The notes under the pieces are model-generated. The model was given only the letters and a program-made list of their open reading frames with translations, had not been told where the DNA came from and made no database searches. DNA of 64,000 bases. Source: an uncultured bacterium (GTDB taxonomy: Bacteria > CG03 > SLGR01 > JAGXOG01). The stretch covers positions 491-64,490 of the forward strand of contig CAYZAK010000004.1 of the NCBI GenBank assembly GCA_964476445.1. The letters are read 5' to 3'. Position 1 is the first letter of the stretch; each line of letters opens with the position of its first letter. The translations under genes and the position numbers were made by a program. Shown piece after piece: positions 1,085-63,329 of the stretch.

Positions 1085-1100
1085 AGGATAAAAATAAAAA

Positions 1101-32126: not shown

Positions 32127-32184
32127 TTAAGAGTTTTCATTATTAAGTTCATAACAGTGCTCTTTTTTATATAACAGTAAATAT

Positions 32185-32457
32185 ATGATACAAGATTTTA
32201 AATTTAAAGTTTATTATATGGGCAATAAAGTTGCTATTGAAGACGAAGTAGAGGAGTTTAAAAATAAATTCAAGGAAAAATTTGATGAATTTCCGGAAGT
32301 TGAACTTATTTCTATTTCCAAAAATACAGAAAGCGCTGAATCTAATAATATACTGGTAACTCCAACTATTTTGAGGATTTCACCGGAACCAAAGATGAAA
32401 ATTGTAGGAGATTTTCCTCAGAAAGAAGAAACATGGAATAAAATTATAAAGGAGTAA
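32185..32457 (+). CDS. kaiB: KaiB-family protein (thioredoxin-like circadian/hourglass component)
   Basis: 90 aa. ILVTPTILRISPEPKMKIVGDF aligns with the KaiB core ILATPTLVKxLPPPVRRIIGDL. Immediately upstream of kaiC. Confidence 0.8.
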   Translation: MIQDFKFKVYYMGNKVAIEDEVEEFKNKFKEKFDEFPEVELISISKNTESAESNNILVTPTILRISPEPKMKIVGDFPQKEETWNKIIKE

Positions 32458-32461
32458 TAAA

Positions 32462-33907: not shown

Positions 33908-33911
33908 TTTC

Positions 33912-34940: not shown

Positions 34941-34987
34941 ATGATATTATTTATTGAAAGGAAAAGGTTAAAAATAAGGAGAATATA

Positions 34988-40100: not shown

Positions 40101-41208
40101 TTCCTGGCCGGAAGACGGGGATATGCTTATTATGACCGGCACGGAGACGGTAAGGTTCGAACTTAACAAAAATTATGACGATCGAAATCCCAAAACTATT
40201 TCCGTTCACGAGCATATTAGCATATATGATGAATACGGTAATTATATCAGCGCAATGTACTATGATCTTTCATTGGATACTCATACCCATATTTTAAAAA
40301 TCACCCCTGATGCAGAACATAGAAAATTTATGCCTTCCCGGAAGTATACAGTAAAAATTGGTAAAAAAATTACCGATTCTGTGGGGCATACTTTTTTAGG
40401 AGACCGGAAAATAGAATTTGTCCGGCTTCTGGAGGATAAAGATACCGCCGGCCTTGAAATTACAGAGCTTGCCTCTCTAGAAATCCCCTCCGGTTTTATA
40501 GGGGAAAGCAGCTATGTTCGATTGACCAGGAGGGATCAGACCGAAGAGACCCGCCGGGCCGACAGAATGGTTGCTACTAATCCGCTGGTCAGTATTGAAA
40601 CATTGGATATGGTTGAACTTAGGGCGTTTGATTCTTCGGGAGAAAGAGTAGATGATTTTATTAAAAATCCTGATTTAACTATGTACTACACTGAAGAAAA
40701 GGGACTGGCCGGTGGTAAAAATATTGATGAGAGATTTCTTAAAATTTTCAGGTTGAATTCTGACGGTACGGTCAGTGGAAGTTTCTCCGGCGGGTCCAGT
40801 TCCGGATGGGAGTATGTAGGCGGGGAGAACGACTATACTCAAAATAAAGTTACGGTAAGTCCGTCCCGGTCGGGATTATATTCTTTAAAAGCCTATTCCG
40901 AGCCGGTAAAGGAGGTTTCAGAGGTAATTGCTTACCCCAATCCGTTCAATCCTTTTGAAGATGAGTTAAACATTAAATTTATTATTACTAAGAATATGAG
41001 TCTGGAACTGGAATTTTACACTCTGACCGGGGATCTGGTTTACAGACATGAAAAAGAATTTCAGGGAGATTCGGCAGGAACCCAGGTAAGTTTTACCTGG
41101 GATGGAAGAAATAATGAACATACTCTTGTAGGTAATGGAATGTACTACGGGCGTATTAAAAACAAGGGTGAGGAGAAGGAAAGTTTTTTAATAGGAGTAG
41201 TTAAATAG
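37129..41208 (+). CDS. Large secreted protein: signal peptide, six-bladed Kelch/galactose-oxidase-like beta-propeller, FN3/Ig-like repeats, and T9SS (Por) C-terminal sorting domain
   Basis: N-terminal hydrophobic signal. Six LFGG-type Kelch blades (YLFGGRG, LLFGGVH, VLFGGSEG, IIFGGRNG, VLFGGGKG, MFFGGYQD). Tandem beta-sandwich repeats with W-rich FN3-like cores. The C-terminus is AYPNPFNPFEDEL...GMYYGRIKN...VVK, typical of a type-A T9SS C-terminal domain. Confidence 0.7.
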   Translation: MSKRRVKFFLCFALFILQLNIKLFGITVENESGENFSGELGYLMVTSTGVTLANKFEQLTPEQSPEPRYWHAMWTDNIVEKIYLFGGRGVVVDGGSLGDTQYFSENTWNIQEGTGPSKRSNMAITDCGLLFGGVHSDTLYDDTWRFNDGNWKKIDVSTHPSARFGHTLNMTEKGMVLFGGSEGAGETWILDTQVDEWTEVTPANSPPGRERHVSWVTETGEVIIFGGRNGDDFFGDTWKYDPVSEEWENLEIEGPSEREFGTVFFDKDTQAAVLFGGGKGPSAIYLNDLWIFHDGKWHQSYPYLPGEAPEERTSAAASYYPSEKWGMFFGGYQDLKNSEEKYFGDTWKLELSTGGVYVSPVFDTGEINTRLYYERLDWSVKGASGSVKFQVASSSINQPAPDNFTGPDGSTESYYTAPGEVDSYHYNNRYFRYRFFMENDKPGVVDPVSVVSASVTYNHAPTTPTLNSHESSAEDGGVSGAATKFAWNHADDSDGDEIKYNLQVAYTQNFSDFIINETNIEEHDHSPTGIEREMEHGGPYYWRVRANDGSVYGNFSSTWSIYIDTVPPAAVTTLTAQRDDYKSGAVELEWTVPDERELTRIRWTHLYEIDSESRWGNSDEKEYTSTVPTGSTDSYVVTGLNDATTYWFSVRLEDEAGNLSDFFSSPACKTNSPPEITLTQDLDGEWGTASDKGTSTIVFSWDIYDPDPEDTHEVDIWMAEDIDRDFDIRVATGIIGSAGEYSWDSRHVRNAPSYRARFMVKDQRGLSGYIISPGTMNITNYNEPPEITLITPSGGEEWNDINYIDWDWYDPNRTDTVYFEILVSTDAGQNFTYVEEYVRPSEIPYRWGTGNVPDSDESVVKVIGIDNHGAEGKDISGEFSIKNDSLPPKPFDLISPEYGSFSYSTQVVFSWEETADADGGEITYTLCISENPDFVPHNLYEDLTGTQKELALEDETIYYWKVLAKDEKLVDTESSSWGKFAVNINPPQILSSWPEDGDMLIMTGTETVRFELNKNYDDRNPKTISVHEHISIYDEYGNYISAMYYDLSLDTHTHILKITPDAEHRKFMPSRKYTVKIGKKITDSVGHTFLGDRKIEFVRLLEDKDTAGLEITELASLEIPSGFIGESSYVRLTRRDQTEETRRADRMVATNPLVSIETLDMVELRAFDSSGERVDDFIKNPDLTMYYTEEKGLAGGKNIDERFLKIFRLNSDGTVSGSFSGGSSSGWEYVGGENDYTQNKVTVSPSRSGLYSLKAYSEPVKEVSEVIAYPNPFNPFEDELNIKFIITKNMSLELEFYTLTGDLVYRHEKEFQGDSAGTQVSFTWDGRNNEHTLVGNGMYYGRIKNKGEEKESFLIGVVK

Positions 41209-41233
41209 TTAAATTAAAAGGAGTTATATTAAA

Positions 41234-41608
41234 ATGATGGAAGAAAAAAAGAGAGTATTAATTGCCGAAGATGACGAGGATGTAATACTGGTACTGAAAG
41301 AAGGTTTAAAAGGATATGAATTTATAACTGCCAAAGATGGGAAGGAGGCTTATAAGAAGATAAAATCAGAACATCCGGATTTAATCATTTTGGATGTTAT
41401 GATGCCTGAAATTAATGGAGCCGATTTAAATAAAAGGTTGAAAAGAGAAGATGAAGTTAAGGATATTCCGGTTTTAATAATTACCGGCCGCCCGAATCTC
41501 CGGGGCCTTTTTTCAGATTCGGGGGTCAATAAAGTCTCCGGATTTTTGGAAAAACCTTTTAGTCTAAAAATACTTAAGGAGGAATTAGAAAAAATTATTA
41601 ATAAATGA
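41234..41608 (+). CDS. Orphan single-domain response regulator (CheY-like receiver)
   Basis: VLIAEDDED, LIILDVMMPEINGAD and KPF motifs. 124 aa. Confidence 0.75.
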   Translation: MMEEKKRVLIAEDDEDVILVLKEGLKGYEFITAKDGKEAYKKIKSEHPDLIILDVMMPEINGADLNKRLKREDEVKDIPVLIITGRPNLRGLFSDSGVNKVSGFLEKPFSLKILKEELEKIINK

Positions 41609-43107
41609 GAAAGAGTTTTTTTACATACTGTATAATAATGATTGTAGTAACTCCTGCCGGTGCTTTTTATGCTCCTTCCGGTGGAACCGGGGGAGTGCCG
41701 GGAGAGTATCTCTCTTATTTTTCTGCCTCGGCCAGGGCGCTGGGTATGGGGGAGGCCCATACTTCAATTTCAGACAGCGCGTCGTCTATTTACTATAATC
41801 CGGCAAATATTGGTGGTTTGGGCAATCATACCGTAGACACTCTTTACACGACTTTGTTGGGAGGAGGCAATTACGCGTCTCTATTTTACTCGGGTGCGCT
41901 GGGTATGGATTATACGGTGGGAGCCGGGGTGGTATCCTTAAATTCCGGTGAAGGGGTAAAGAGAAACCGATGGGGAGCTGACGAAGGTAAGTTTAGAGAT
42001 TACAGAACTGCAATTTACCTTGCTCTGGCAAAAAATTTTGAACCTAAATTTAAGCTGGGTTTAAATTTAAAAATCTTAAATCAGCAGATAGATACTTATG
42101 AAGATTCGGGGTTGGGTTTGGACGGAGGTTTAAAATTAAGGGCAACTGATAGAATTGATGTAGGCTTAAATATCCAAAATATACTTTCTCCCGCCTTAAA
42201 GCTAATAAATGAAGAGGAAAGATACCCCCTCAATATAAAAATGGGAGTTAGCCGCAGTTTTTTTCTGGACCGGCGGTTGACTGTTACAGGCGATTTAGGT
42301 TTACTTGACCCCGGCGGTCAGAGAACTTTAAGATGGCATACCGGATTAGAATATAAAATTTTTGACCTTATCTATTTGAGGGGAGGATTGAACTATAAAA
42401 ATATTACCGGCGGACTGGGATTAAAAACGGATAAATTTGGATTTTCCTATGCGGTTAGATATTCTGACCCCGGTCTTTTCCATACGGTGAGTACATCCTA
42501 TATGTTTGGCATGCTTCCATCCAAGAAGGAAAAACAGCTAGCCCGTAAAGAAGAACTGCTGGATGAACGGGAGCAAAGATTTAAAGAGTGGAGAAAAGAA
42601 CAGGAGAGAGCTCTCAGGGAAAGGTTGGGACGTACCCAGGAGGAATTAGAAGAACAGATGGAAGAAGCCAGGTCCAAAAATGAGGAGCTGGAAGCTTTAA
42701 TACAGGCGGCTATAGATATTAGACGTGGGGATTATGCCCGTGCCGAGGAGAGTCTCAGGGGAATTTTAGAGCGGGATCCCCATCAGGAAGATGCTGGTAA
42801 ACTGCTGGAAATTATCGAGAAAGAACTGGCTAAAGAGTTTTCGTTTAATCGGATGATGGGCGCCTATAACGAGGGAAACTATGAAGTAGCTTTAAACGAA
42901 TCCCGTAAAGCAAAAAGGGATAATACCCAGTTTGAGCAGATTCAGATTATAGGTCTTTTGTCATCGGCCCGGGTAAATATACTGTCTGAAAATTTTGAGC
43001 GGGCCAAAAGTGAGTTGCGTAAAGTGATGGATATACGTCCAGATAGCGAGACGGCCCGTTCTCTTCTCAGGAGAGCTGAAAGATTAGAGGAAATACATGG
43101 ACAGTAA
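41605..43107 (+). CDS. Outer-membrane beta-barrel protein (PorV/FadL-like N-terminal motif) fused to a C-terminal coiled-coil/TPR-like helical domain
   Basis: Signal peptide. Conserved ARALGMGEAHT...IYYNPANIG motif, of the GMGGA...NPAG type seen in PorV/FadL/UPF0164 barrels. Alternating beta-strand pattern over about 300 aa, then about 190 aa rich in E/R/K/L heptads. Confidence 0.5.
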   Translation: MRKSFFTYCIIMIVVTPAGAFYAPSGGTGGVPGEYLSYFSASARALGMGEAHTSISDSASSIYYNPANIGGLGNHTVDTLYTTLLGGGNYASLFYSGALGMDYTVGAGVVSLNSGEGVKRNRWGADEGKFRDYRTAIYLALAKNFEPKFKLGLNLKILNQQIDTYEDSGLGLDGGLKLRATDRIDVGLNIQNILSPALKLINEEERYPLNIKMGVSRSFFLDRRLTVTGDLGLLDPGGQRTLRWHTGLEYKIFDLIYLRGGLNYKNITGGLGLKTDKFGFSYAVRYSDPGLFHTVSTSYMFGMLPSKKEKQLARKEELLDEREQRFKEWRKEQERALRERLGRTQEELEEQMEEARSKNEELEALIQAAIDIRRGDYARAEESLRGILERDPHQEDAGKLLEIIEKELAKEFSFNRMMGAYNEGNYEVALNESRKAKRDNTQFEQIQIIGLLSSARVNILSENFERAKSELRKVMDIRPDSETARSLLRRAERLEEIHGQ

Positions 43108-49455: not shown

Positions 49456-52400
49456 ATGAAAAAAAGAATATTTTGTACTGTTGCGGCCTTATTAATATAC
49501 TTTGCCGGTATAGCGGCAGCTGCAGAGGATGTAACTTTAACTGTTAAGGTTGAAGACGGTTACGGGGAGAGTGTAAGGGGTGCCCGGGTGGTACTTGCTG
49601 ATTTTGAAGATTTGGCAAATTCCTATATTGACTATACCGCAGAAAACGGCGAAACCTCATTTACCGTTCCCAATGACGGAAAACAATATGCAATAATACC
49701 CTCTTCTCACGGCTGGACTCCGACTTTTCTTGACTGGGTAAATTCAGCCGATTACGAGCCGGTTGAATGGGCCGCATCCACGGCTGAGGAAACAGTTACA
49801 GTCGGGCTTCAGAAAATGACGGATTTAAGCGGGATATGCAAAGTTAAATCTGAGGTCACAGTAGATACAACTACAGTTATCTTCGGCGGCATAGGACACG
49901 ACAGCCGCACGGGGGATGTGGCAATGGGGGCAGGCTTTGCGCCCGATGCCGACACCGATTCCATCTATTATTACAATGTGCCCAACCATCTCGGTGACGA
50001 CGGCTATGGCGCGGGATGCTTTTCTCCGGTTATGAATACGCATATTGACGGTACGATTTCGGGCATTACCTCATCGGAAACAGGAACAGTTGCCGGCCCG
50101 ACGCTGGATCTTACTTCTACGGAGGCGGAAAGTCCTGATACTACGGAAAGTTCCGCCGGAACCGCCGACCTCCTTATTTTCCGCGGTGTTGTGACAAGCC
50201 CGGGCGGCGAGGCCCTGCCCGACGCCGAGGTAAAGATTGAATACGGCACTACTACGGCCGACGGTAACTTGGTTTGGGATTCCTTTACTTCCTGGACGGA
50301 CTCAAACGGGATTTACCGGGTTTACGGCGACACCGTACCGCCCTCGGCGACTTTTCACTACTATGTTTCAAGAAAAGGCAGCGTTGGGGTCAGCACCGCG
50401 GTCCCCGTTAACTTTCAAGAAACTACCCTGCCTGCAAGAAAGAATTTCACGCTTGATGTGGCAGATGGGAAACTAAAAGGAGTGCTTCTGCTGGACGGTA
50501 CCCCTGTTCCCGACGGCCACGTTCACGTTCACGGGGACTGGACGGCCTGGAGTATTGACGGGAGCACAACCAATTTGGTTAAAGAAGAGCCGTTTATCTG
50601 GGCGGACTCCCGGATAAGGTCAGACGGGACTTTCGATATAGGAGGACTTCCCCGGGGAAACTATATACTGGAGATATGGTCGGATTTTTCGCAGGACGAA
50701 ATTATTTACAACAACGGCCCCAACGGCCGCGAAGATATCGTAGACTGGAGCTACAGGCGTGTGGGGAGCGACGATTTAAGGATTAAGGTATGGTCCAGCA
50801 CTTTCAGCGTCTTTACCTCCACAGGAGGGGATGTTACCGTCCAGGAAACCAACGAAGACGGCCGGCTTAAAGTAAATATCCCTCCCAAGGATTTTACGGA
50901 AAGTTCAACCGCTACTATTACCGGGTTTGTTAAACTGCTTTCCGGAGATGAGATTGTTGATGAGAGCCCGGTGACTTTAATTGTCAGCGAAAACAATTAT
51001 GAACACGAATTTTCGACACACGGAGTAAACTCCGGTACTGCCACGGAAGAAGAAGACCTTGTATATGTTGATCTTCCCCACAGCCGGGTGAGCGAGGATA
51101 GTGTTGAACTTTTATCACATGAAGACTTTGCGTGGGTTGACTGGGAACACCCGGAGACCGGAAAAAGCCGGATATACTGGTATGCTACGCAGGCACCGGA
51201 AAAAGGGGAAACAGTTGAATTAAACTACGATTATCAGAACCCGGACATGCCGGTGCGCTTATTTGAGACGGTTTCCGGTACGGGCACGGACTTTCCGTTT
51301 GAAATAACAGTGGAGGCCGGCAAAAAATACCGGATGAATATAAGGTCGCTTTACTACGGCGAGTCGCTTAAAATGGGCCAGTGGGATCAGCTTGACAATA
51401 TAGATTTTACCGGTGACAGGACAACTCTTGATATAGGCGAGCTGGCGGTAGCCCCGGCCGGGCAGGTAAGGGGATATGTAAGAAAACCCGACGGCAATTA
51501 CTTTAGGCCTGTATACAAATTGATTGAGGATGATGCGAATGATTACAAGGTGGAGCTTGGTATGGAGGTAGTAGCCGACGGGATAACGGTGGATTCCTGG
51601 GACGATGCGGAAGTTCACGATGACGGCTCTTTCCTGTTGACCGGCCTTCTTCCCGGAGAGTACCACCTCAAGACCAGGACCGGGCTCTGGGTGGAACCGA
51701 AAGAAAAATTAAACGAGGAACTCGGTAAAGTACCCTGGGCCGATACAAGAAGGGAGATTACCGTGAGGGCTTCAACCGAGCCCGCCAGGATAAACTTGAA
51801 TCTTGAGAGAGGGATAAACATAAAGCCCGAGGGTATAAGCGTAGATCTTACTCCGGGGGCGACTCATTATTTTTCCAAAGAGGAAGAATGTTGGGAGACC
51901 GGCGATGTCAGGCGCGAGGGTATGATAGGGTTTTTCGCGCTTAAAAAAGATACCCAACTCACCCCGAAAACTTTGAAAAGTTTCTTTATGGGCGGCAGTG
52001 AGTTTTTTGACATAGGGTTCGGCTACAACCCTGATAGCGATGAATTTTTCGCCGGCGAGACCTTTGAAAAGAGGGTTGCCCCGGGCGAGTTTGATTTTTA
52101 CGGAGGGGCGATAAGAGAATACGATCCCGAGACCGATCAGGACGATATGAATATGCTTTTTCTCTCCCGCCGGAGGGGAGTGACGGTAAGCGAGGACCTG
52201 GCAGAGTATATCGAACAGGAAGGCCCCGTCCAGGAGATAAATATTCCGGACTTGGAACTGGGGAGCGTCGAGCTTACCGGACATATTGCAGGAGACCATA
52301 TTATTACTAAGGAAGATCTGCCTGCAATTAAGGCAAATCCAAACGCAGTAATTGAGTTACTGCCCTCTGTGATGCTCTATGATGATACCGACGGCCGCCT

Positions 52401-54516
52401 GGCCGGCTTTTCGGCGCTGGTACCCAAACCCAGCGAAGATTTTGGTGAAGAGTTTCAGGCTATTATTGACCAAATAGGGGAAGATGACGCTCAGGCACTT
52501 GAAGATTTTAATGTTCTTCTATCCTCTGATAATGCATCCTATAGGTTTAGATTTTTGAGGCCGGATACCTATAACGCTGTATTTTACAGCCCGAACTATC
52601 CTGCTGTATCGGCAAAAGTTGATTTAACTGCCGACGACCAAAAAACTCTTAATATAGATTTTGACTATGGAGCAGCCGAAGGAGAGGAAAAAAGAGAAGT
52701 AAGAACAGCTTCAATATACGCTACGTTTGTGGATACGAACACTCTGCCGATTAGCGGGGTAAAGGTTACTGCAAAAGGACCTAATTTTGACCAGAACTAT
52801 CTATCTGACACCGAAGGTAATATAGAAATAAACCGTCTTCCCCTGGGGTTATACTACTTTTTTATAAACGCAGATGGTTACGAAAGGAAAGCAACCAAGG
52901 TTAGGGTTGATAAAACCGGTGTTCACGAAAACGAAGTGGTACTCAAAAAAGCGCCGGAAATATTCTGGGGAGAAGTTCTATCCCGTAGACTTCCCAGTAA
53001 AGTAGCTTATGAAGGTGCTGATATAGTGGCGTATCATTATCTCGATGATTCAGGGGCTCGGGTAACAGATGAACTTGTGGGTATTTATTCGGATACGTCG
53101 GATTCAGAAGGAAATTATTTAATAAATAACCTGCTTACCGACCATACTTACCGTATGTGGCTTGTTGTCCCCGGCCATCTGAAATATTCCGCTGATTTTA
53201 AAGCCGACGGTACCTTTTCAGGAGCGAATTTTCTTTTAAGAAATCTTGAACCTAATTTCAGTGTTAATTACCGTTTGGACGGCTCGTCTTTTGTATTTAC
53301 AATTAATGCAAATAAAACTATGAACGGTGCTCCTTTGGTAAGATATACCAAAGGTAACTTTTCAAGCGCTGGTTCAGCGGAATGGACAGATGTAAATTTA
53401 AATACTGTAACCTCCTCAAGAAGATGGAGGGCAACTATTGACGGCAGTGATTTTGATCCCGAAAATTTATATACGTTAAGAGTGACAGGGGAAGATACCA
53501 ACGGAGTAACAGTTGAAAACTATTCCTCTAAATTTGCAAAAAAGTATCCAACCCGGAACATAAAACTTCTGGAAGACCTGCTGGCTGAGGGAGGCACAGT
53601 GGAAGTAGATGATACTGGAGATGACGTATCAGTAGTGGAAGTTCCTGCCGGGGCTATTGAGATAGATGAAAGTTCCGCAGAAGCAACGGTTTCTGCATTT
53701 TCGTCTTCGGGAGAAGAGACCGAGATAAAGGCAATGGCCCTTGGAGGTTTTGCTTCCCTGCTCTTTTCAAAAGAAAGTCTTGTAAGTCAGGTAAGCAACC
53801 TTATAAGCGAGGTTTATACTGTAGAGTTAGAAGCCGAGGACAGCGTAGCCATAACAAAGCCTCTTAAAATTAAACTTGAGTTCAACCGGTCGGATTTTAG
53901 TGATGCCGGCAATAATTCGGATAATATAAATATCAGGAGAAAAAATTCTGCCGGAGAATGGGAAGTGGTAGAAGGTATAATATCGGTTGATGAGACAAAC
54001 GGTACTGCGGCAATAGAGGTATCCGATCTAAATTCTGCCTCATTTGCCTCGGATATGACTTATTCCGCTCAGTCCGGTTCCCAGGGCGGGGAATACGCGG
54101 TCTTCTACGGGATACCCGAAGAGCAGACCGGTCCTCAGGAATATATCGAGGAGAAGTTCAGGGCCTATAATTTCCCCAATCCTTTTAATCTGAAACAAAA
54201 ACAGGTGACTCTTGAAAATTACGGGACCTCTTTTACCGGAGCCCAGCAGACAGTAGAGGGGACGGTGTTAAAATATTATCTGCCGTCAAAATACGGTACG
54301 GACGCCGACGTGGAGTTTAACATATACAATGTGGCCGGAGAGTTGGTAAGAACCATAAACGAACCGTCCCGGGAGGGAGGCTACATATATTTCACCGAAT
54401 GGAACGGAAGAAACGATAGCAACAATAAATGCGCCAGCGGGGTATATCTTGCAATACCCCGGGTTGACGGAGCCGCTGTAATGAGCGATGCTCTTAAGAT
54501 GGCCATAATAAGATAA
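49456..54516 (+). CDS. Giant secreted protein (1686 aa) with at least six carboxypeptidase-regulatory-like (CarboxypepD_reg) beta-sandwich domains and a T9SS C-terminal sorting domain
   Basis: Signal peptide. Repeated V.V.D..G.P..GA.V and DENGNY-type CarboxypepD_reg cores at about aa 25, 240, 340, 670, 1030 and 1100. C-terminal NFPNPFNL...GVYLAIPRVDG...AIIR tail. Markedly higher GC than the flanking genes. Confidence 0.7.
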   Translation: MKKRIFCTVAALLIYFAGIAAAAEDVTLTVKVEDGYGESVRGARVVLADFEDLANSYIDYTAENGETSFTVPNDGKQYAIIPSSHGWTPTFLDWVNSADYEPVEWAASTAEETVTVGLQKMTDLSGICKVKSEVTVDTTTVIFGGIGHDSRTGDVAMGAGFAPDADTDSIYYYNVPNHLGDDGYGAGCFSPVMNTHIDGTISGITSSETGTVAGPTLDLTSTEAESPDTTESSAGTADLLIFRGVVTSPGGEALPDAEVKIEYGTTTADGNLVWDSFTSWTDSNGIYRVYGDTVPPSATFHYYVSRKGSVGVSTAVPVNFQETTLPARKNFTLDVADGKLKGVLLLDGTPVPDGHVHVHGDWTAWSIDGSTTNLVKEEPFIWADSRIRSDGTFDIGGLPRGNYILEIWSDFSQDEIIYNNGPNGREDIVDWSYRRVGSDDLRIKVWSSTFSVFTSTGGDVTVQETNEDGRLKVNIPPKDFTESSTATITGFVKLLSGDEIVDESPVTLIVSENNYEHEFSTHGVNSGTATEEEDLVYVDLPHSRVSEDSVELLSHEDFAWVDWEHPETGKSRIYWYATQAPEKGETVELNYDYQNPDMPVRLFETVSGTGTDFPFEITVEAGKKYRMNIRSLYYGESLKMGQWDQLDNIDFTGDRTTLDIGELAVAPAGQVRGYVRKPDGNYFRPVYKLIEDDANDYKVELGMEVVADGITVDSWDDAEVHDDGSFLLTGLLPGEYHLKTRTGLWVEPKEKLNEELGKVPWADTRREITVRASTEPARINLNLERGINIKPEGISVDLTPGATHYFSKEEECWETGDVRREGMIGFFALKKDTQLTPKTLKSFFMGGSEFFDIGFGYNPDSDEFFAGETFEKRVAPGEFDFYGGAIREYDPETDQDDMNMLFLSRRRGVTVSEDLAEYIEQEGPVQEINIPDLELGSVELTGHIAGDHIITKEDLPAIKANPNAVIELLPSVMLYDDTDGRLAGFSALVPKPSEDFGEEFQAIIDQIGEDDAQALEDFNVLLSSDNASYRFRFLRPDTYNAVFYSPNYPAVSAKVDLTADDQKTLNIDFDYGAAEGEEKREVRTASIYATFVDTNTLPISGVKVTAKGPNFDQNYLSDTEGNIEINRLPLGLYYFFINADGYERKATKVRVDKTGVHENEVVLKKAPEIFWGEVLSRRLPSKVAYEGADIVAYHYLDDSGARVTDELVGIYSDTSDSEGNYLINNLLTDHTYRMWLVVPGHLKYSADFKADGTFSGANFLLRNLEPNFSVNYRLDGSSFVFTINANKTMNGAPLVRYTKGNFSSAGSAEWTDVNLNTVTSSRRWRATIDGSDFDPENLYTLRVTGEDTNGVTVENYSSKFAKKYPTRNIKLLEDLLAEGGTVEVDDTGDDVSVVEVPAGAIEIDESSAEATVSAFSSSGEETEIKAMALGGFASLLFSKESLVSQVSNLISEVYTVELEAEDSVAITKPLKIKLEFNRSDFSDAGNNSDNINIRRKNSAGEWEVVEGIISVDETNGTAAIEVSDLNSASFASDMTYSAQSGSQGGEYAVFYGIPEEQTGPQEYIEEKFRAYNFPNPFNLKQKQVTLENYGTSFTGAQQTVEGTVLKYYLPSKYGTDADVEFNIYNVAGELVRTINEPSREGGYIYFTEWNGRNDSNNKCASGVYLAIPRVDGAAVMSDALKMAIIR

Positions 54517-54532
54517 ACAGGAGGATAATTTT

Positions 54533-55480
54533 ATGAAAAAATTAATAATTTTGAGTATAGCGTCCCTGCTGGGAGCCGTTCCGGTGTCTTACGGCGGATT
54601 GGGAACCACTGGCGCGCAGTTTTTAAAAATAGACCCGGGAGCCCGCCCGGTGGGAATGGGAGGAGCCTATTCAGCGGTGGTAAGCGATGCCAATACATTG
54701 TTTTACAATCCCGCCGGAATAGCTCAAATGGAAAACCGACAGGTTTCGGGAACCTACCTGAGATATTTTCAATCCATCAACTACGGTAATATAGCCGGAG
54801 TTATGCCCTCGGAAGGGTCATCCTCCTGGGGAATGGGAATAACGTATCTGGGAGTAACAGATATTCCCCACAGAGGGCTTGTGGATACCGATGATCCCAC
54901 CGGAACCGGTTCACCGGAATCCACTTTTGGGTCCATGGATACTGCTTTTAACCTGGCCTATGCCCGGCAAAATCCTTTTCCGTCTGTTTTAGACGGCCTG
55001 GATCTGGGCGCAAAACTGGGTGTAATTTATCAGACTCTTGAAGATAAGAACTCTGTTACGGCCATGGTTGATGTAGGAGGTTTTTACAGTGTAAACGAGA
55101 AACTCTCTTTAGCCCTGGTATTTCAGAATATAGGTATGGGGGTAAAATTTGATTCCAAAACCGATCCCCTTCCCTTTAATATAAAAGCGGGAGTGGCGTT
55201 TAAACCGGTTGACGGGTTAACTCTGGCATGTGATATAAACGAATACATTTTAGATGAACAGCTATACGCTTCTATAGGAGCGGAGTATTGGATTATGGAT
55301 ATGCTGGCTTTGAGGGGAGGCTATAAATACGGTTACGATACCCAGGCATTGGATTCTTCCATGGTGGGTTTTTCCGGCGGCCTGGGGTTTAGCATATCGA
55401 ATATGAATTTTGATTACGCCATGGCTCCCTTTGGAGATTTAGGCGATACCCACCGGGTTACTTTATCAGTTAATTTTTAA
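54533..55480 (+). CDS. PorV/FadL-like outer-membrane beta-barrel (T9SS-associated shuttle-like protein)
   Basis: Signal peptide. GAQFLKIDPGARPVGMGGAYSAVVSDANTLFYNPAGIA is the conserved PorV/UPF0164-type N-terminal motif. 315 aa ending in an aromatic-rich strand (LSVNF). Directly downstream of a T9SS cargo gene. Confidence 0.55.
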   Translation: MKKLIILSIASLLGAVPVSYGGLGTTGAQFLKIDPGARPVGMGGAYSAVVSDANTLFYNPAGIAQMENRQVSGTYLRYFQSINYGNIAGVMPSEGSSSWGMGITYLGVTDIPHRGLVDTDDPTGTGSPESTFGSMDTAFNLAYARQNPFPSVLDGLDLGAKLGVIYQTLEDKNSVTAMVDVGGFYSVNEKLSLALVFQNIGMGVKFDSKTDPLPFNIKAGVAFKPVDGLTLACDINEYILDEQLYASIGAEYWIMDMLALRGGYKYGYDTQALDSSMVGFSGGLGFSISNMNFDYAMAPFGDLGDTHRVTLSVNF

Positions 55481-55574: not shown

Positions 55575-56441
55575 ATGGACAATAATGCAGTACTACTAAT
55601 TTCGTGTCCCGATCGGAGGGGATTAATTGCCAAGGTTACCGATTTTGTTTATAAAAACAACGGGAATATTGAACATTCAGATCAGCATGTGGATCACCGC
55701 CCGGAAACATTTTTTATGCGGATAGAATGGTCTCTGGATGGATTTAATCTGGATAAAAAAGGTATTAAACAGAGTTTTTCTGAACTGGCCGGAGATTATA
55801 ATATGAAATGGGAACTGTATTTTAAAAAAAATACTAAAAATACGGCTATTTTTGTCTCCAGAAACCTTCACTGTCTGTATGAACTTCTTTACCGTTACGA
55901 GTCAAATCAGTTCAATACTACTATTCCCCTTATAATATCCAATTACAAAAAGGCGGGAAGGATATCCGAAAAGTACGGCATAGATTTTTATTATATACCC
56001 ACGGATTCTGACCGGGAAAAAGATTACGAAGAAAAGCAGTTAAGATTACTGGATAAATACGGAATCAATACGGTTGTGTTAGCCCGGTATATGAAAATAC
56101 TATCGCCCAGGTTTGTAAATAAGTATCCCAACCGGATAATAAATATACATCATTCATTTTTACCTGCTTTTGTGGGATCCAAACCCTACGAAAGAGCCCA
56201 CAGGCGGGGAGTAAAATTAATAGGGGCGACCAGTCATTATGTTACCCGGGATCTGGATGACGGCCCTATAATAGAACAGGATGTTACCCGGATAAGCCAC
56301 AGAGATGCAGTTAAGGATTTAAAAATAAAAGGTGAAGATCTTGAAAAACTGGTCCTTTCCCGGGCGTTGAACTGGCATCTGGACAGAAAAGTGCTTGTCT
56401 ATGGAGACAAAGAGCGTAAAAAGACAGTAATTTTCGATTGA
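55575..56441 (+). CDS. purU: Formyltetrahydrofolate deformylase
   Basis: N-terminal ACT domain (LLISCPDRRGLIAKV). C-terminal formyltransferase core (NIHHSFLPAF, HYVT.DLD.GPII). Confidence 0.85.
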   Translation: MDNNAVLLISCPDRRGLIAKVTDFVYKNNGNIEHSDQHVDHRPETFFMRIEWSLDGFNLDKKGIKQSFSELAGDYNMKWELYFKKNTKNTAIFVSRNLHCLYELLYRYESNQFNTTIPLIISNYKKAGRISEKYGIDFYYIPTDSDREKDYEEKQLRLLDKYGINTVVLARYMKILSPRFVNKYPNRIINIHHSFLPAFVGSKPYERAHRRGVKLIGATSHYVTRDLDDGPIIEQDVTRISHRDAVKDLKIKGEDLEKLVLSRALNWHLDRKVLVYGDKERKKTVIFD

Positions 56442-56442
56442 T

Positions 56443-57705
56443 ATGAAAAAAGGTTTAAAGCTGAAAAGCCGAAAACATTCCACCCGGTTTAAAAGGATAG
56501 AAAAGATTCCTGTACCCGGTGAAGTATTACTTCATCTCGACCAGCATATAGGCGCTCCGTCTCGGGCGATGGTAAATAAAGGAGATAAAGTTAAAAAAGG
56601 AACGATGGTGGCTGAGGCTTCCGAAGGCTGTTCGGCGGCGCTGCACTCCCCTATTGCCGGTATTGTAAAAGATATAGGTCCGTATCCCCGGCTCGATGGT
56701 CAAATATCCCCTGCGATAGCTATTAAAAAGAGCGGCGACCAGAAAAAAGATTATATGGAACCCGTAGAGGATATTACCCCGGAAAATATTTATGAAAGAA
56801 TAAGAGAATCCGGAATAGTAGGTATGGGGGGAGCGGGTTTTCCGGCTCACGTAAAATTGAAACCCCCCGTGGAAGTGATAACTTCTTTTTTAAACGGTTG
56901 CGAATGTGAGCCCTACCTTACCGCCGATGAAAGAATTATGGATGAAGAAGCAAAGAAAATTGTTCGGGGATTTGACTATGTAAGACAGGCTGTGGGTGCC
57001 CGGGAAGGTGTAATAGGAATAGAGGCCGATAAAGAGGATGCCATAAAAAGTATGAAAAGTTTCGTCGCCCGTCATAAAAATATCCGGGTGGAGGTGGTTC
57101 CAAAAGTTTATCCCCAGGGTTATGAAAAAATGCTGATAAGCAAAGTAACAGGCCGGGAAGTGCCGTCCGGGGGTTTGCCCCATGATGTGGGGGTTTCAGT
57201 TCACAACGCGGCGACCTGTATGGCCGTGTACGAAAGTATAGCCGAAGGAAAACCTCTTATAGAGAGAGTTCTTACGGTCAGCGGAAACAGGATGGTAAAA
57301 ACCGGTAATGTAAGGGTTCCTCTGGGAGTATCCTTTGGTGAAATTATTGACTACTATGATTTTCAAAGGTCAGATAGTGGGTTCGAACTTTTTGCAGGAG
57401 GACCGATGATGGGTACGCCGGTGGATTCTTTGGAAGTTCCGGTAGAGAAAACTACTTCCGGCATTCTTATAAACCGGGCCCGGTCTATCGGAAGTGAACC
57501 ATGTATAAGGTGCGGTAAATGTGTAAATGTATGCCCGATGGGGCTTGTTCCCCAGGAGCTGAATAAATACTTTGAGGGGCTGGATTATGAAAGGATAAAG
57601 GAGGCGGGGCTGGAGGATTGCATGGAGTGCGGTAGCTGTACGTATAAATGTCCTTCGGATATTTCTTTAACTTACAATTTTAAGATAGCCAAAACCAAGT
57701 TGTGA
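56443..57705 (+). CDS. rnfC: Rnf electron-transport complex subunit C
   Basis: NADH/FMN-binding GMGGAGFPAHVKL. Two 4Fe-4S motifs CIRCGKCVNVCP and CMECGSCTYKCP. 420 aa. Confidence 0.85.
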   Translation: MKKGLKLKSRKHSTRFKRIEKIPVPGEVLLHLDQHIGAPSRAMVNKGDKVKKGTMVAEASEGCSAALHSPIAGIVKDIGPYPRLDGQISPAIAIKKSGDQKKDYMEPVEDITPENIYERIRESGIVGMGGAGFPAHVKLKPPVEVITSFLNGCECEPYLTADERIMDEEAKKIVRGFDYVRQAVGAREGVIGIEADKEDAIKSMKSFVARHKNIRVEVVPKVYPQGYEKMLISKVTGREVPSGGLPHDVGVSVHNAATCMAVYESIAEGKPLIERVLTVSGNRMVKTGNVRVPLGVSFGEIIDYYDFQRSDSGFELFAGGPMMGTPVDSLEVPVEKTTSGILINRARSIGSEPCIRCGKCVNVCPMGLVPQELNKYFEGLDYERIKEAGLEDCMECGSCTYKCPSDISLTYNFKIAKTKL

Positions 57706-58223
57706 AAAATAAAAATTCAAATTTCAATATGATTCTTATCCTAGCCGGGGTCTGTTTAATTTCGGCCGGTATTTTGGGTTTACTGTACTCAGAGACCAGG
57801 GAAAAAATTGAACAGAACCGACAAAAGAGAATTGAGAAATCTGTTTACGAAGTTATCCCCGGCATAGACAGTTATGAAGGGTCGGGAGAAGATATAAAAT
57901 CATTTAAAGGGAAAAAAGGAGATCATGTAGTCGGTTACGCTGTGTTAACTGAAGGTATGGGATTTCAGGGAGAGATAGAGCTTATAGTAGGTGTAGCCAG
58001 CAATATGAGGAGTATAACCGGGGTCCGGGTATTGGATTCGGTAGAAACCCCCGGACTGGGAAATAAAATTGCCTCAAAAGAATTTTTAAATCAGTTTGAC
58101 GGTTTAAAGATACCCCGCCAAAAAGGTATTGAAGTGGAGGCCATAACGGGAGCCACAATCTCCTCTCAGTCCGTACAGAGAATAATAAACGAGGCCATAG
58201 AAGATGCTAAAAGAATTCATTAA
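57702..58223 (+). CDS. rnfG: Rnf complex subunit G (FMN-binding)
   Basis: N-terminal TM anchor. FMN_bind domain with the flavinylation-site context ITGATISSQSV. GTG start overlapping the rnfC stop. An alternative ATG exists at 57729. Confidence 0.75.
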   Translation: MKNKNSNFNMILILAGVCLISAGILGLLYSETREKIEQNRQKRIEKSVYEVIPGIDSYEGSGEDIKSFKGKKGDHVVGYAVLTEGMGFQGEIELIVGVASNMRSITGVRVLDSVETPGLGNKIASKEFLNQFDGLKIPRQKGIEVEAITGATISSQSVQRIINEAIEDAKRIH

Positions 58224-58794
58224 AGGACTCTGGGAAGAAAACCCTGTTTTATGTCAGTTGCTGGGCATGTGTCCCACCCTGGCGGTAACCACTTCGGCTA
58301 TAAACGGGTTGTCCATGGGGGCGGCTACAACTTTTGTGGTAGTGAGTTCGGGGATAGTGATATCCCTGTTTAGAAACGCCATACCCGATAACGTGCGTAT
58401 ACCTGTGTTTACCGTGGTAATAGCTACTTTTGTCACGGTGGTGGATATGACTTTAAAAGCCTATTTTCCAGATATATCCAGAGCTTTAGGCCCGTATGTG
58501 CCCTTAATAGTGGTAAACTGCCTTATCTTAGGCAGGCAGGAAGCTTTTACTTCCAAGAACCCCGTTTCCCTGGCAATAAGCGATACCCTGGGCATGGGGC
58601 TGGGGTTTACCTGGCTTCTTACCGTACTGGGTTCGATACGGGAAATTTTGGGATCCGGCAGCCTGATGGGAATAAATATAATGCCCTCTAATTTTAGACC
58701 GTGGGTGGTTATGGTTCTGCCGGCAGGGGCTTTTATAACCCTGGGTTTCCTGGCAGCTCTTTATAACTACATTAATCGTAGACGGAGATGTTAG
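58204..58794 (+). CDS. rnfE: Rnf complex subunit E (NqrD/RnfE family)
   Basis: NPVLCQLLGMCPTLAVTTS signature start of RnfE/NqrD. Six TM helices. Confidence 0.8.
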   Translation: MLKEFIKGLWEENPVLCQLLGMCPTLAVTTSAINGLSMGAATTFVVVSSGIVISLFRNAIPDNVRIPVFTVVIATFVTVVDMTLKAYFPDISRALGPYVPLIVVNCLILGRQEAFTSKNPVSLAISDTLGMGLGFTWLLTVLGSIREILGSGSLMGINIMPSNFRPWVVMVLPAGAFITLGFLAALYNYINRRRRC

Positions 58795-59384
58795 GAATGA
58801 ATCTGGCAACCATATTTATATCAGCGGTCTTAGTAAACAACTTTGTACTTTACTATTTTCTGGGCATATGTCCTTTTTTAGGGGTATCCAACCGTATAGA
58901 TTCGTCGCTGGGCATAGGTATGGCCACAACTTTTGTCATGACCATGACTTCTCTGGTAACCTGGCCGCTTTACTACTATATAATTTCACCCGAGACGGGA
59001 CTGGACCTTCCTTTTTTAGAATACGTGGTTTTTATTCTTGTAATAGCTTCTTTAGTTCAGTTTGTGGAGATGTTTTTAAGAAAAAACTTTAAGAAACTGT
59101 ACAAGGCTCTGGGTATATATCTTCCTCTAATAACTACAAACTGCGCTATTCTGGGTATGGCTTTATTTATGGTGTTAAGAGATTATAATTATTTACAGAG
59201 CATGGTTTTCGGTTTTGGTGCGGGGGTGGGGTTTACCCTGGTAATTACCATAATGGCCGGAATTAGGGAAGAGTTAAAATATGCTCCCGTTCCCGATGTT
59301 TTTAAAGGAGCTCCGGTAACTTTGATTACCGCCGGCCTGCTGGCCCTGGCCTTTATGGGTTTTACGGGAATGATTACTCCTTAG
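58788..59384 (+). CDS. rnfA: Rnf complex subunit A (NqrE/RnfA family)
   Basis: FISAVLVNNFVLYYFLGICPFLGVS signature start of RnfA/NqrE. Six TM helices. Confidence 0.8.
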   Translation: MLGMNLATIFISAVLVNNFVLYYFLGICPFLGVSNRIDSSLGIGMATTFVMTMTSLVTWPLYYYIISPETGLDLPFLEYVVFILVIASLVQFVEMFLRKNFKKLYKALGIYLPLITTNCAILGMALFMVLRDYNYLQSMVFGFGAGVGFTLVITIMAGIREELKYAPVPDVFKGAPVTLITAGLLALAFMGFTGMITP

Positions 59385-59387
59385 AAA

Positions 59388-60185
59388 ATGACAGTCTTAT
59401 ACAGCGTTTTAGTTTTTGGGATAATAGGTCTGGCGGCGGGGGTGATACTGGTAATATCCTACGGAAAGCTTAAGGTATCGGAAACCCCCGACATTAAAAA
59501 AGTTTCTCGGGTTTTACCCGGAGTTAACTGCGGGGCATGCGGCTACGCTTCATGTCACGAATACGCTGTTTCCGTGGTAGAGGGTAAAGCAGAAATAAAT
59601 GAGTGTATTCCAGGAGGCGACAAGACTGCTGAAAAAATAGGAAAAATACTTGGCCTGGAGTCTGAAGCCGGCGGGCAGTTTAAAGCAGTTGTAAAATGCG
59701 GTGTCCGGGACAGAAAATACAATGCCCGGTACAAAGGCCCGAAAAGTTGCGTTGCTGCTGATTTAGTCGCCGGCGGTCTCAGCTGTAAATACGGGTGTTT
59801 CGGATACGGTGATTGTGTTGAAGTGTGTCCTTTTGACGCTATTTATTTAAATGAGAATAATTTACCTAAAGTAGATTTTAAAAAATGTACCGGTTGCGGT
59901 CTCTGCGTTAAAGCCTGCCCCAGGAATATAATAGAGTTAGTTGAACCGGAAAAGAATAGAATAGTTTATGTAGGTTGTTCCAGCAAACAGAGCGGTAAGA
60001 ATACCCGGACTGTTTGCGATTCGGGTTGCATAGGATGTAAAATCTGTGAAAAACAGGGTCCGGAAGGAATGTTTAAGGTAGAAGATAATCTAGCCGGAGT
60101 GAAAATACAGAATCAAAAGGCGGATACAGATAAGATAAAATGTCCCCCCGGATGTATTTATGAATTCTCCAAAGATAACGGTTAA
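59388..60185 (+). CDS. rnfB: Rnf complex subunit B (polyferredoxin)
   Basis: N-terminal TM anchor. C-x2-C-x4-C-x..C cluster (GVNCGACGYASCHEYA). Two 4Fe-4S ferredoxin motifs (CFGYGDCVEVCP, CTGCGLCVKACP). Further C-x2-C pairs. Confidence 0.8.
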   Translation: MTVLYSVLVFGIIGLAAGVILVISYGKLKVSETPDIKKVSRVLPGVNCGACGYASCHEYAVSVVEGKAEINECIPGGDKTAEKIGKILGLESEAGGQFKAVVKCGVRDRKYNARYKGPKSCVAADLVAGGLSCKYGCFGYGDCVEVCPFDAIYLNENNLPKVDFKKCTGCGLCVKACPRNIIELVEPEKNRIVYVGCSSKQSGKNTRTVCDSGCIGCKICEKQGPEGMFKVEDNLAGVKIQNQKADTDKIKCPPGCIYEFSKDNG

Positions 60186-60555
60186 AGGAAGGGTAGTCCG
60201 GGTTTTTGAGCAGAAAATTGAGATAAAAATTTTAAATCCCGACCGGTGCGAAGAATGCGGACTCTGTCTTGAAGATAATAAAAGCCTTACTGTTTCTGTA
60301 GAAAATAATTTTAACAAAAACGATAATGTAAACGTTGAGTTTGACTGTAATATTATGAGGAGAATAATATTCTGGCTTTATTTTGTTCCCGCTTTATGTC
60401 TAATAGCGGGATTTACCGGGGGGTATATTTTTTGGGGCAACTGGGGCGGTTTTATTGGCGGGATGTTATCTTTAGGCGCAGGGTACTGGGGAGTTAAAAA
60501 GCTAACTTCCGGGTTTAAAAATAAAATAAAGGTGAGCAAAGATGAAAAAGGATAA
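60160..60555 (+). CDS. RseC/MucC-family protein (SoxR-reducing-system-associated small membrane protein)
   Basis: N-terminal beta-rich segment with a C-x2-C-x2-C pair (RCEECGLC). Two C-terminal TM helices rich in G/W/Y. About 130 aa. Overlaps the rnfB 3' end by 26 nt. Confidence 0.5.
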   Translation: MNSPKITVKGRVVRVFEQKIEIKILNPDRCEECGLCLEDNKSLTVSVENNFNKNDNVNVEFDCNIMRRIIFWLYFVPALCLIAGFTGGYIFWGNWGGFIGGMLSLGAGYWGVKKLTSGFKNKIKVSKDEKG

Positions 60556-61483
60556 AAGATATTTTAATTACTCCAGGTATTTAGAACACATGTTTGGGGG
60601 TAAGGTTTACAAAGTAAGTGTTGACGCGGGTTTTGATTGTCCCAATCTTGACGGAAAGGAGAGCGACACCGGGTGTATATACTGCGATAATAAAGCATTC
60701 AGTTACCACACTCAAAGGGATAGAAAACCTCTTGAAGAACAGATAAAGACCGGTATGTCGTTTATGGAAAAACGTTACGGTGCCAAAAAGTTTATAGTAT
60801 ATTTTCAGGCCCGGACTAATACCTATACCAAACCTGATATTTTAAGAGAGAAGCTGGATGTTATTAAAAAATTTGAAAGGGTAGTTGGGATATCAATAGG
60901 TACAAGACCGGATTATGTCAATGCCGCCATTCTTGATGTTATAGATGAATATTCCGGGAATTACGAGATATGGATGGAATACGGCCTACAGAGTATACAC
61001 AATAAAACTTTAAATGAGATTAACCGTAACCATTCTTACCAGAATTTTATCCAGGCGGTGGAGCTTACCCGCCATTATGATAAATTTAAAATCTGCGCCC
61101 ATATAATACTGGGACTTCCCGGGGAGACAAAAGAAAATATGCTGGAAACAGCCAGGGAATTAGCCCGTTTAAAACTTGAAGGGGTCAAAATACATCCTCT
61201 GTACGTAGTAAAGGATACCCCCCTTGAAAAACTATATGACGAGGGAAAATTTTCACCTCTCTCACAGTATGAATATATAGAAATTATTTCCCGGGTTCTA
61301 TCCCTGCTTCATCCGGATACGGTAATACAGAGAGTTACTGCCTCCTGCTCTCCTGAGTATCTGGTTGCTCCGGAGTGGATAAATAATAGAAATGAGTTAC
61401 TTAAAGCCTTAGACATCAAGCTTGAAAAGGACGGTTTGTGGCAGGGTAAAAAATACAGTTATGTTGAAAGAGACGCCAGGTAA
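60542..61483 (+). CDS. Radical SAM protein, TIGR01212 (YhcC-like) family
   Basis: [16 protein letters not shown] cysteine motif near the N-terminus. TIM-barrel-like GISIGTRPD and LGLPGET. 313 aa. Confidence 0.7.
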
Positions 61484-63329
61484 ATATCAGATTATAGTAG
61501 TCGGCGGCGGTCACGGCGGAACAGAGGCGGCTTACATAGGGGCTCGCATGGGCTGTACCACTGCCCTGGTAACTTTTGAAAAAGATAACTTGGGAATGAT
61601 GTCCTGTAATCCGGCTATAGGGGGAGTGGGAAAAGGTCAGCTGGTAAGGGAAATCGATGCTCTGGGTGGAATAATGGCCCGAGCGGCCGACTATGGGCTT
61701 ATACATTATAAAAAGTTAAATACTTCTAAGGGACCAGCGGTTCAATCTTCCCGGGCCCAGGAAGACAGAGACAGATACAAAAAGTATATTTACACCACCT
61801 TAACCTCCCTTGAAAATCTGGATATAATTGAGGCCGGTGCTCAAGAAATAATATTTAAAAAAAAGAAAGCGGTGGGCATTCGTACAAATTTAGGAAAAAA
61901 GATATACGGAGAAAAAATTGTAGTTACTCCGGGAACTTTTTTAAACGGTATGATGCATGTGGGAATGGAAAATTTTTCCGGCGGGCGGATTAACGAACCG
62001 TCCTCAAAAGGTTTGGCCGGTTCCATAAAACAGGCCGGCTTTAATACTATGAGATTTAAAACGGGTACCTGTCCCCGCTTAGAAGGAAAGACTATTAACT
62101 TTGACCTTTTAAAGGAGCAAGAAGGAGATGGATTTATAGATCCTTTTTCCCTACTGACGGATAAAAAACTTAAGAACAGGATAGTATGCCATATAACCCA
62201 CACCAATAAAAAGACCCATGCCATTATAAAAGAGGGATTTGACAAATCCCCTCTGATGACCGGAAAAATAGAGGGTACCGGAGTTCGTTATTGCCCCTCG
62301 GTTGAGGATAAAATCGAAAAATTTCCAGATATGAACAGCCACCATATATTTCTTGAACCGGAGGGACTGGATACGGACTGGTACTATCCCAACGGGATTT
62401 CAACCAGTTTACCCCGGGAGGTGCAGGAAAAGTTTATTCGAACAATTCCGGGTCTTGAGAACGTAAAAATAGCAAGGTTTGGGTACGGTATAGAGCATGA
62501 TGTAGTCGATCCTCGGGAACTTAAACCCACTCTTGAAACTAAACGGGTAAAAAATCTATATTTTGCCGGCCAGATTAACGGGACTACCGGTTATGAAGAG
62601 GCCGCGGCCCAGGGATTAATAGCCGGTATAAACGCTGTTTTGAGTATAAAAGGCGCCGATCCTTTTGTGCTTAAAAGACATCAGGCCTACATAGGAGTTT
62701 TAATAGATGATTTGATTACCAAAGGTACTCGGGAGCCTTACCGTATGTTTACCTCCAGAGTGGAATACAGGCTTCGTTTAAGGGAGGACAATGCGTATTT
62801 AAGATTGGCAAAAAAAGGTTTTAAGCTGGGAAGCACCGGAAAAAAACTTTACAAAAAAGTTAAAAATTTTAAAGAATATTTAGAAAAAGCCCGTAAAATT
62901 ACAGAAGAAATAAAAGTTAATCCAGAATCCGAATTTGGCCGGAAATTTAAATTTTCCGGGGTAAAATCTGTAAAAGAATTACTTAAAAATCCTAAAATAA
63001 ACTGGTCGGATATTAAAAATTATTCCGAAAAAATAAAAAATATACCCGGAAAATTGGGGCGGGAGCTGGATATCCAGACAAAATACGAAGGTTATATAAA
63101 AAGAGAACAGAATAAAATAGATAAGTTAAAAGATCTCGAGAACTGCAAATTGCCCGAAAATATAAATTACCGGAAAGTGGAGGGGCTGTCTAACGAAGAA
63201 ATAGAAAAATTAAGCCGGGTCAAACCGGATAATTTGGCCCGGTCTTCCAGGATACCGGGAGTTACTCCCGCGGCGGTATCCATACTTAGAGTATATTTAA
63301 AGGGTAGAAAAAGAAATACTAAAAAATAA
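61461..63329 (+). CDS. mnmG: tRNA uridine 5-carboxymethylaminomethyl modification enzyme MnmG (GidA)
   Basis: FAD site [25 protein letters not shown] and GYEEAAAQG conserved blocks. C-terminal MnmE-interaction helix. The ATG at 61461 is preferred over the track start at 61422, which overlaps the upstream gene by 62 nt. Confidence 0.9.

Follow-up and report, generated by a model that had tools for sequence, protein, structure and literature searches.

The 64,000-nucleotide (nt) stretch of contig CAYZAK010000004.1 analyzed here (hereafter the window), from an uncultured bacterium, carries an operon for the Rnf complex in the order rnfC-rnfG-rnfE-rnfA-rnfB, from which rnfD is missing. The best explanation is a conventional six-subunit Rnf, a ferredoxin:NAD+ (nicotinamide adenine dinucleotide) oxidoreductase coupled to Na+/H+ translocation, whose genes are placed at two loci (probability about 0.85). 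What was observed directly is which genes are present and in what order, the lack of rnfD in the window, lone rnfD genes in the same metagenome-assembled genomes (MAGs) as D-less operons, and intact cofactor motifs. The parts of the system were already annotated as Rnf subunits in GenBank, and the arrangement amounts to a well-known complex with its genes in a variant order.

Absence of rnfD from the window

Positions 56443-60555 hold six closely packed, co-oriented open reading frames (ORFs) in the window ORF list (Table 1), at exactly the coordinates given in an initial annotation made from the sequence, which had reported the order rnfC-G-E-A-B without rnfD. All five Rnf subunits in the window scored above curated family cut-offs, RnfG only just. 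rnfC ends in AAG TTG TGA with its stop at 57703-57705, and rnfG starts with a GTG at 57702, giving a 4-nt overlap; no space is therefore left between the two genes for one of ~330 codons, as had been argued from the end of rnfC and the start of rnfG. Searches for RnfD/NqrB in the 64-kb window by tblastn and phmmer with Clostridiales RnfD gave a best match of only E = 0.17. A hidden Markov model (HMM) was built from ~165 RnfD sequences and run with --max against all six frames of the window, where nothing was found at E <= 1e-3; the control loci all recovered RnfD with this model at E < 1e-97. Neither RnfD nor a remnant of it was found in the window by tblastn, phmmer or the purpose-built HMM in six frames, and RnfD is not encoded in the same operon as rnfCGEAB there.

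Conservation of the D-less gene order

A Logan contig from an independent assembly (L001; run SRR9330141) carried the same genes in the same order as the window, and its products were exact for the three window proteins looked up, RnfC included. A genome scan with RnfC yielded 40 loci, the gene orders of which fell into four groups. Eight loci of related MAGs (L002-L006, L008-L010), with RnfC 52-80% identical to that of the window, shared the arrangement purU-rnfC-G-E-A-B-(rseC)-mnmL-mnmG, and rnfD was absent from them within the extent of each contig; most of these D-less loci were labelled Elusimicrobia or Elusimicrobiota. purU was directly upstream of rnfC in L001-L006, L008 and L009, mnmL came after rnfB or rseC in L001-L004, L006, L009 and L010, and the downstream mnmG was also conserved in the clade. 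Because the D-less order recurs in an independent assembly and in relatives as divergent as these, it is real and old: a conserved feature of the clade, and neither a misassembly nor a recent deletion.

A deletion or assembly problem at the rnfC-rnfG junction had been offered initially as one explanation of the missing gene. Only the unusual gene order speaks for it. The same junction and products were found on the independent Logan contig, the same tight junction was found in 8 other MAGs from different studies, and base composition was smooth across it; misassembly is refuted by the independent assemblies, and the probability left for a junction artifact is negligible.

Two of the D-less loci were labelled otherwise (L003, Deltaproteobacteria; L005, Candidatus Sumerlaeota) and show the purU-rnfC-G... 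arrangement with RnfC 54-56% identical to that of the window; the taxonomy assigned to these MAGs, or their binning, may be unreliable. L003 is without rseC between rnfB and mnmL.

Outside the D-less loci, Clostridia had the canonical order rnfC-D-G-E-A-B and Gemmatimonadota had rnfC-D-G-E-A followed by apbE. One further locus (L007; CAZPHG010000058, an uncultured bacterium MAG; 495-5377) had the order rnfD-C-G-E-A-B, with rnfD (PF03116, 353 bits) directly upstream of rnfC, a glycosyltransferase gene upstream and no purU; its RnfC is 52% identical to that of the window. In the Gemmatimonadota loci L011, L013-L019, L023, L031 and L037-L040, where rnfC-D-G-E-A leads directly into apbE, an RnfB-like gene was seen ~5-6 kb upstream and outside the operon, which is another split arrangement. 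In the Clostridia/Christensenellales loci L024-L036 and L041, RnfG frames were ~480-790 codons long (e.g., L025 10623-12704; L028 2632-5004) versus 173 codons in the window, which fits the multi-flavinylated or multihaem RnfG reported for Christensenellales (PMC8238504).

Lone rnfD genes in the clade

The RnfD of L007 was used as query in a protein search, in which 26 clusters at 54-65% identity formed a discrete group, well apart from the next matches; many of these clusters are named RnfD of Elusimicrobiota MAGs. All seven genomic contexts examined held a lone rnfD, with none of the other rnf genes within the flanks (<=10 kb on each side). The neighbourhood was recurrent (...dxr-rseP-ispG-proS-(variable gene)-rnfD-(nifS-like)-(nifU)-cysE-like-thioredoxin-like-...-mnmA). 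Three relative MAGs could be paired, and in each of them the D-less operon was on one contig and a lone rnfD on another: GCA_016934855.1 (lone rnfD P0011 on JAFGSA010000020; operon L004 on JAFGSA010000026), GCA_051745145.1 (P0015 on JBNJDT010000013; L002 on JBNJDT010000042) and GCA_051747165.1 (P0023 on JBNJFW010000039; L010 on JBNJFW010000046). Pairwise RnfC/RnfD identities between these three MAGs were 56.9/57.2, 55.3/53.3 and 56.2/55.9%, and such near-equal values indicate co-divergence, as expected of partners inherited together.

The lone proteins were identified as RnfD by TIGR01946 (294-314 bits; cut-off 207). Assignment to NqrB was rejected, as the nqrB models scored below their cut-offs. 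The RnfD flavinylation Thr, in the motif ATP(L/M/V), was invariant in all 35 aligned sequences, lone genes included. In a neighbour-joining tree calculated with no support values, the in-operon RnfD of L007 fell among the lone RnfDs; without such values the tree was not used for the direction of the rearrangement. The initial annotation had left two further explanations standing, an rnfD encoded elsewhere, which would make this a split operon, and a lineage running a D-less variant. The first is borne out by the lone rnfD in each of the three paired MAGs and by one in the sequencing run of the window organism (see below); the second finds no support in the paired MAGs, where a lone, genuine rnfD is present.

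A probable rnfD of the window organism

The rnfD attributed to the window's own organism (P0018) is located on ENA ERZ27266011 contig k141_273951 (45,957 nt), where its neighbourhood matches that of the rnfD in the sister MAG. P0018 is the nearest RnfD to P0015 of the closest sister MAG (JBNJDT; 68.5% identical), scores 295.6 bits with TIGR01946 (cut-off 207), and starts with an ATG that shares bases with the stop codon of the HEAT-repeat gene in front of it (ATGA). The source pattern was equal for the window proteins and the neighbours of P0018 (NCBI, ENA, Logan). Logan contig L056 (run SRR9330141) carries proS-HEAT-rnfD, with an rnfD product identical to P0018 at 331/331 positions; L001 and L054, whose products match window proteins exactly, come from this run as well. 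When the window and P0018 contigs were compared, their guanine-plus-cytosine (GC) content was 0.399 vs 0.388 and their tetranucleotide correlation 0.98; same-MAG control pairs gave correlations of 0.94-0.98, but contigs of the sister MAG scored as high, which means that composition by itself is not decisive. Identity to the JBNJDT MAG was 63-95% per gene for the window and 52-86% for the rnfD contig, and the value for RnfD is close to that of the window RnfG (68.4%). On the basis of the shared run, composition and equal divergence, it is very probable that the two contigs belong to the same genome.

Alternatively, the window genome might truly be without rnfD through recent loss, P0018 then coming from another related population sampled together with it. 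Membership of both contigs in the same bin rests on inference, and relative to JBNJDT the RnfC of the window is more conserved (79.7%) than the RnfD of P0018, both of which would suit a loss. Against it, no rnfD closer to P0015 than P0018 was found in a collection of 5.8 billion proteins, the composition of the two contigs matches, the per-gene identity ranges overlap with RnfG as low as RnfD, and the five other rnf genes are intact and conserved, which would be unexpected after loss of an essential partner. Recent loss is therefore considered unlikely.

A proposed six-subunit complex from two loci

The cofactor motifs expected of a working complex were present. The RnfG flavinylation motif ITGATISS (S/T-G-A-T type) was conserved in 8 clade members, numerous Fe-S (iron-sulfur) cysteines were present in RnfB and RnfC, and membrane cysteines were read in the translations of RnfE (LGMCPTL and VVNCLIL) and RnfA (LGICPFL and TTNCAIL); from Nqr/Rnf structures, we take the paired cysteines of RnfA and RnfE to be ligands of the intramembrane Fe-S centre. 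By domain matches, RnfC is of the cytoplasmic NAD(H)/FMN (flavin mononucleotide) subunit type with two 4Fe-4S motifs. RnfG is of the periplasmic FMN-binding type with an N-terminal membrane anchor (hydrophobic residues 5-32). RnfE and RnfA are polytopic membrane subunits (NqrD and NqrE homologues, respectively), and RnfB is a membrane-anchored polyferredoxin, the ferredoxin-side entry module, with hydrophobic residues 1-31 and 21 cysteines.

In the preferred two-locus arrangement, the first locus would be the purU-rnfC-rnfG-rnfE-rnfA-rnfB-rseC-mnmL-mnmG of the window, and the second a lone rnfD elsewhere on the chromosome, translationally coupled to the upstream HEAT-repeat gene and surrounded by dxr-rseP-ispG-proS-(X)-rnfD ... 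nifS-like-cysE-thioredoxin-like-mnmA. By analogy with established knowledge of Rnf and Nqr, the two transcription units would supply one complex. Electrons would pass from RnfB (Fe-S) through the intramembrane Fe-S centre of RnfA/E to periplasmic RnfG-FMN, and then through RnfD-FMN/riboflavin and RnfC (Fe-S, FMN) to NAD+, or the whole path would run in reverse; RseC would serve as a membrane-bound Fe-S accessory protein or regulator. From these parts we infer that the complex assembles and acts as a ferredoxin:NAD+ oxidoreductase and ion pump.

Several points weigh against this proposal. Flavinylation of RnfG and RnfD requires ApbE, and none was found in the window or in any Elusimicrobiota-type locus examined; the only ones seen lie downstream of rnfA in Gemmatimonadota. 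It is unusual, too, for a membrane complex to have the gene of one subunit kept apart from the other five over a long time. In Logan contig L056 the rnfD is truncated by the contig end, and the window and P0018 are linked through a shared run, composition and divergence, which leaves room for a second related population in the sample.

A D-less RnfCGEAB-RseC complex might instead work alone, with the lone RnfD doing something else; an example would be a one-way path from cytoplasmic NADH or ferredoxin through periplasmic RnfG-FMN to an extracytosolic acceptor. The separation is kept across the clade with RnfC down to ~52% identity, rseC is tightly linked to the operon, and partial NQR/RNF-like systems with just one of the two transmembrane paths in use are known (PMC8238504). 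Those partial systems, however, are opposite in type (RnfD-like fused to an NqrF-like domain), both loci occur in every MAG that could be paired, RnfC and RnfD co-diverge, and the lone RnfD, in which the flavinylation Thr is retained, falls in one clade with the in-operon RnfD of L007. RnfC, whose established function is to accept electrons from RnfD, is also kept. RnfD, RnfA, RnfE and RnfG form a strictly conserved membrane core in which the riboflavin of RnfD is the electron source of RnfC (PMC12174285), so that an RnfC without RnfD would be stranded with no known partner. An autonomous D-less complex is accordingly regarded as very improbable, and one complex supplied from two loci is retained.

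It is also very doubtful that the clade-wide uncoupling of rnfD is functional rather than neutral; two versions of this idea can be given. In one, RnfD could be incorporated under a control of its own, and in some conditions there would be a D-less RnfCGEAB-RseC subcomplex that passes electrons along another path. In the other, the position of both loci beside genes for tRNA (transfer RNA) U34 (xm5s2U) modification and Fe-S/sulfur relay could reflect a dedicated low-potential electron supply from Rnf to the enzymes that these genes encode.

As to the neighbourhoods themselves, mnmL (TIGR01212) and mnmG follow rseC in 7 clade loci (window 60542-63329), and genes for a nifS-like desulfurase, a cysE-like and a thioredoxin-like protein and mnmA are downstream of the lone rnfD in 5 loci (L042, L044, L047, L049 and L053). 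That both rnf halves adjoin tRNA U34 modification genes may be coincidental synteny or may indicate a redox/sulfur link.

The RseC/MucC-like protein

The last gene of the cluster encodes an RseC-like protein, residues 12-124 of which align to positions 1-123 of the 130-position PF04246 model; no NCBIfam match was found for it. It contains C30-x2-C33-x2-C36 and a fourth cysteine, C63, all four of which were conserved in 7/7 clade homologues; one strongly hydrophobic segment (63-93) precedes a weaker, glycine-rich second segment. As read from the sequence, this corresponds to the predicted RseC/MucC layout of an N-terminal cysteine cluster followed by two transmembrane helices. The initial annotation had named an RseC-like protein with C-x2-C-x2-C, of a family linked to Rsx/Rnf and followed by a TIGR01212 radical SAM gene, and each of these statements held: the PF04246 match and the cysteines in the relatives support the assignment, the radical SAM gene is in place (Table 1), and the family link is described in the literature (PMC9124969, PMC11729352).

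In several clostridia rseC immediately precedes rnfC, and Clostridium ljungdahlii needs it for autotrophy (PMC9124969). The RseC of Escherichia coli binds to both RsxB and RsxD, and its conserved cysteines can carry an oxygen-sensitive Fe-S cluster (PMC11729352). The window resembles the rseC-rnf loci of C. ljungdahlii, C. autoethanogenum and C. kluyveri and the RseC/RsxABCDGE system of E. coli in having a PF04246 protein beside rnf genes, and its protein shares with those RseC proteins an N-terminal cytoplasmic cysteine cluster and a membrane segment (PMC9124969, PMC11729352). It differs in position, the window rseC being downstream of rnfB and overlapping it whereas the clostridial gene is upstream of rnfC, and in cysteine spacing (CxxCxxC plus a distal Cys in the window; CX2CX5C in E. 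coli). The association of rseC with rnf is already known and is not new here.

Comparison with described systems

All six subunit families of the canonical rnfCDGEAB Rnf of Acetobacterium woodii, Clostridium spp. and Thermotoga maritima (PMC12174285) are shared, with above-cutoff scores, as are the clostridial-type order C-(D)-G-E-A-B, the TGAT motif of RnfG, the ATPL Thr of RnfD, the membrane cysteines of RnfA/E and the Fe-S cysteines of RnfB and RnfC. Unlike the canonical case, rnfD is gone from between rnfC and rnfG and stands alone at a distant housekeeping locus, and the remaining operon is packed behind purU and ahead of mnmL-mnmG. The closest Rnf with all six genes together is that of L007, the RnfD of which is 54-65% identical to the lone-RnfD clade.

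Partial NQR/RNF-like systems (Meheust et al., 2021; PMC8238504) are similar in that the two transmembrane electron paths are encoded separately. They were rejected as a model, being fusions of an RnfD/NqrB-like domain to an NqrF-like NAD-binding domain with no RnfA/E/B/C, whereas here all parts are present at two loci. The non-canonical Rnf of Treponema pallidum (PMC4436053) was also set aside as not comparable, since it keeps both RnfD and RnfC. Literature searches turned up no account of a D-less Rnf or of an rnfD split from its operon. One Elusimicrobia survey counted Rnf as complete at 4/6 subunits in an operon, a threshold at which a split rnfD would stay hidden.

The split does not change what is known of the Rnf mechanism. 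It calls for caution in annotation: where Rnf is scored by operon content, a lineage may be called complete with the gap unnoticed, or a D-less pump may be wrongly inferred. Retention of a complete Rnf with a separate rnfD in the Elusimicrobiota-type clade supports Rnf-dependent energy conservation in these uncultured bacteria, and the split, together with the D-C-G-E-A-B order of L007, is a small natural example of a membrane-complex subunit gene that was relocated without loss.

Features of the rnf locus and of the window

Coordinates and family matches of the rnf genes and their neighbours are listed in Table 1. In the window, a gap of 1 nt separates purU from rnfC; the position of purU is conserved, with a 1-nt gap or an overlap, and it is probably co-transcribed with the rnf genes. 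When 54-64 kb was scanned for promoters and terminators, the counts were close to those expected from shuffled sequence and no internal terminator was convincing, so the scan says nothing firm about transcription units. Rfam and tRNA scans returned three tRNAs only, all distant from the rnf locus. Downstream, mnmL overlaps the end of rseC, and mnmG is followed further on by a PilZ-domain gene. The real start of mnmG is probably near 61461, as in the gene call on the Logan twin contig. The 265-residue RnfB ORF (ATG at 59388) was not in the protein collection; in the Logan gene call the start is placed 18 codons further on (247 residues). The shorter start would remove the N-terminal membrane anchor, so the longer one is favored and, judged from the sequence, is more likely to be right.

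Table 1. Genes of the rnf locus and adjoining genes, in window coordinates.
Gene	Position	Strand	Family match
purU (formyltetrahydrofolate deformylase)	55575..56441	+	TIGR00655, 365 bits
rnfC	56443..57705	+	TIGR01945, 461 bits (cut-off 246); PF13375 RnfC_N, PF01512 Complex1_51K, Fer4 domains
rnfG	57702..58223	+	TIGR01947, 105.5 bits (cut-off 102); PF04205 FMN_bind
rnfE	58204..58794	+	TIGR01948, 247 bits (cut-off 213); PF02508, 224 bits
rnfA	58788..59384	+	TIGR01943, 251 bits (cut-off 229); PF02508, 212 bits
rnfB	59388..60185	+	TIGR01944, 110.6 bits (cut-off 68.7); PF04060 and Fer4 (4Fe-4S) domains
rseC/mucC-like (small membrane protein)	60160..60555	+	PF04246, 57.1 bits (cut-off 24.4)
mnmL/ytqA-type (tRNA-modification radical SAM gene)	60542..61483	+	TIGR01212, 320 bits
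mnmG/gidA (tRNA U34 modification enzyme)	61422..63329	+	GIDA Pfam families on identical L001 product

Elsewhere in the window, two very large ORFs (1359 and 1686 residues; within 37129-43107 and 49456-55480) are upstream of PorV-like genes. A PorV-like ORF (54533-55480) comes directly after the 1686-residue ORF, and phmmer matched its product to another ORF, at 41605-43107. These PorV-like neighbours suggest a putative type IX secretion-style cargo. A KaiC-like double-domain ATPase (32462-33907; PF06745, 384 bits) is located within a set of signalling genes (29454-37136), where its neighbours are a MASE3-PAS histidine kinase, a second kinase, a receiver-GAF-kinase hybrid and a helix-turn-helix response regulator. 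Across positions 1-64000 all family-matched ORFs are on the + strand, a bias that is unusually strict for 64 kb, and the cumulative GC skew climbs steadily over 52-64 kb.

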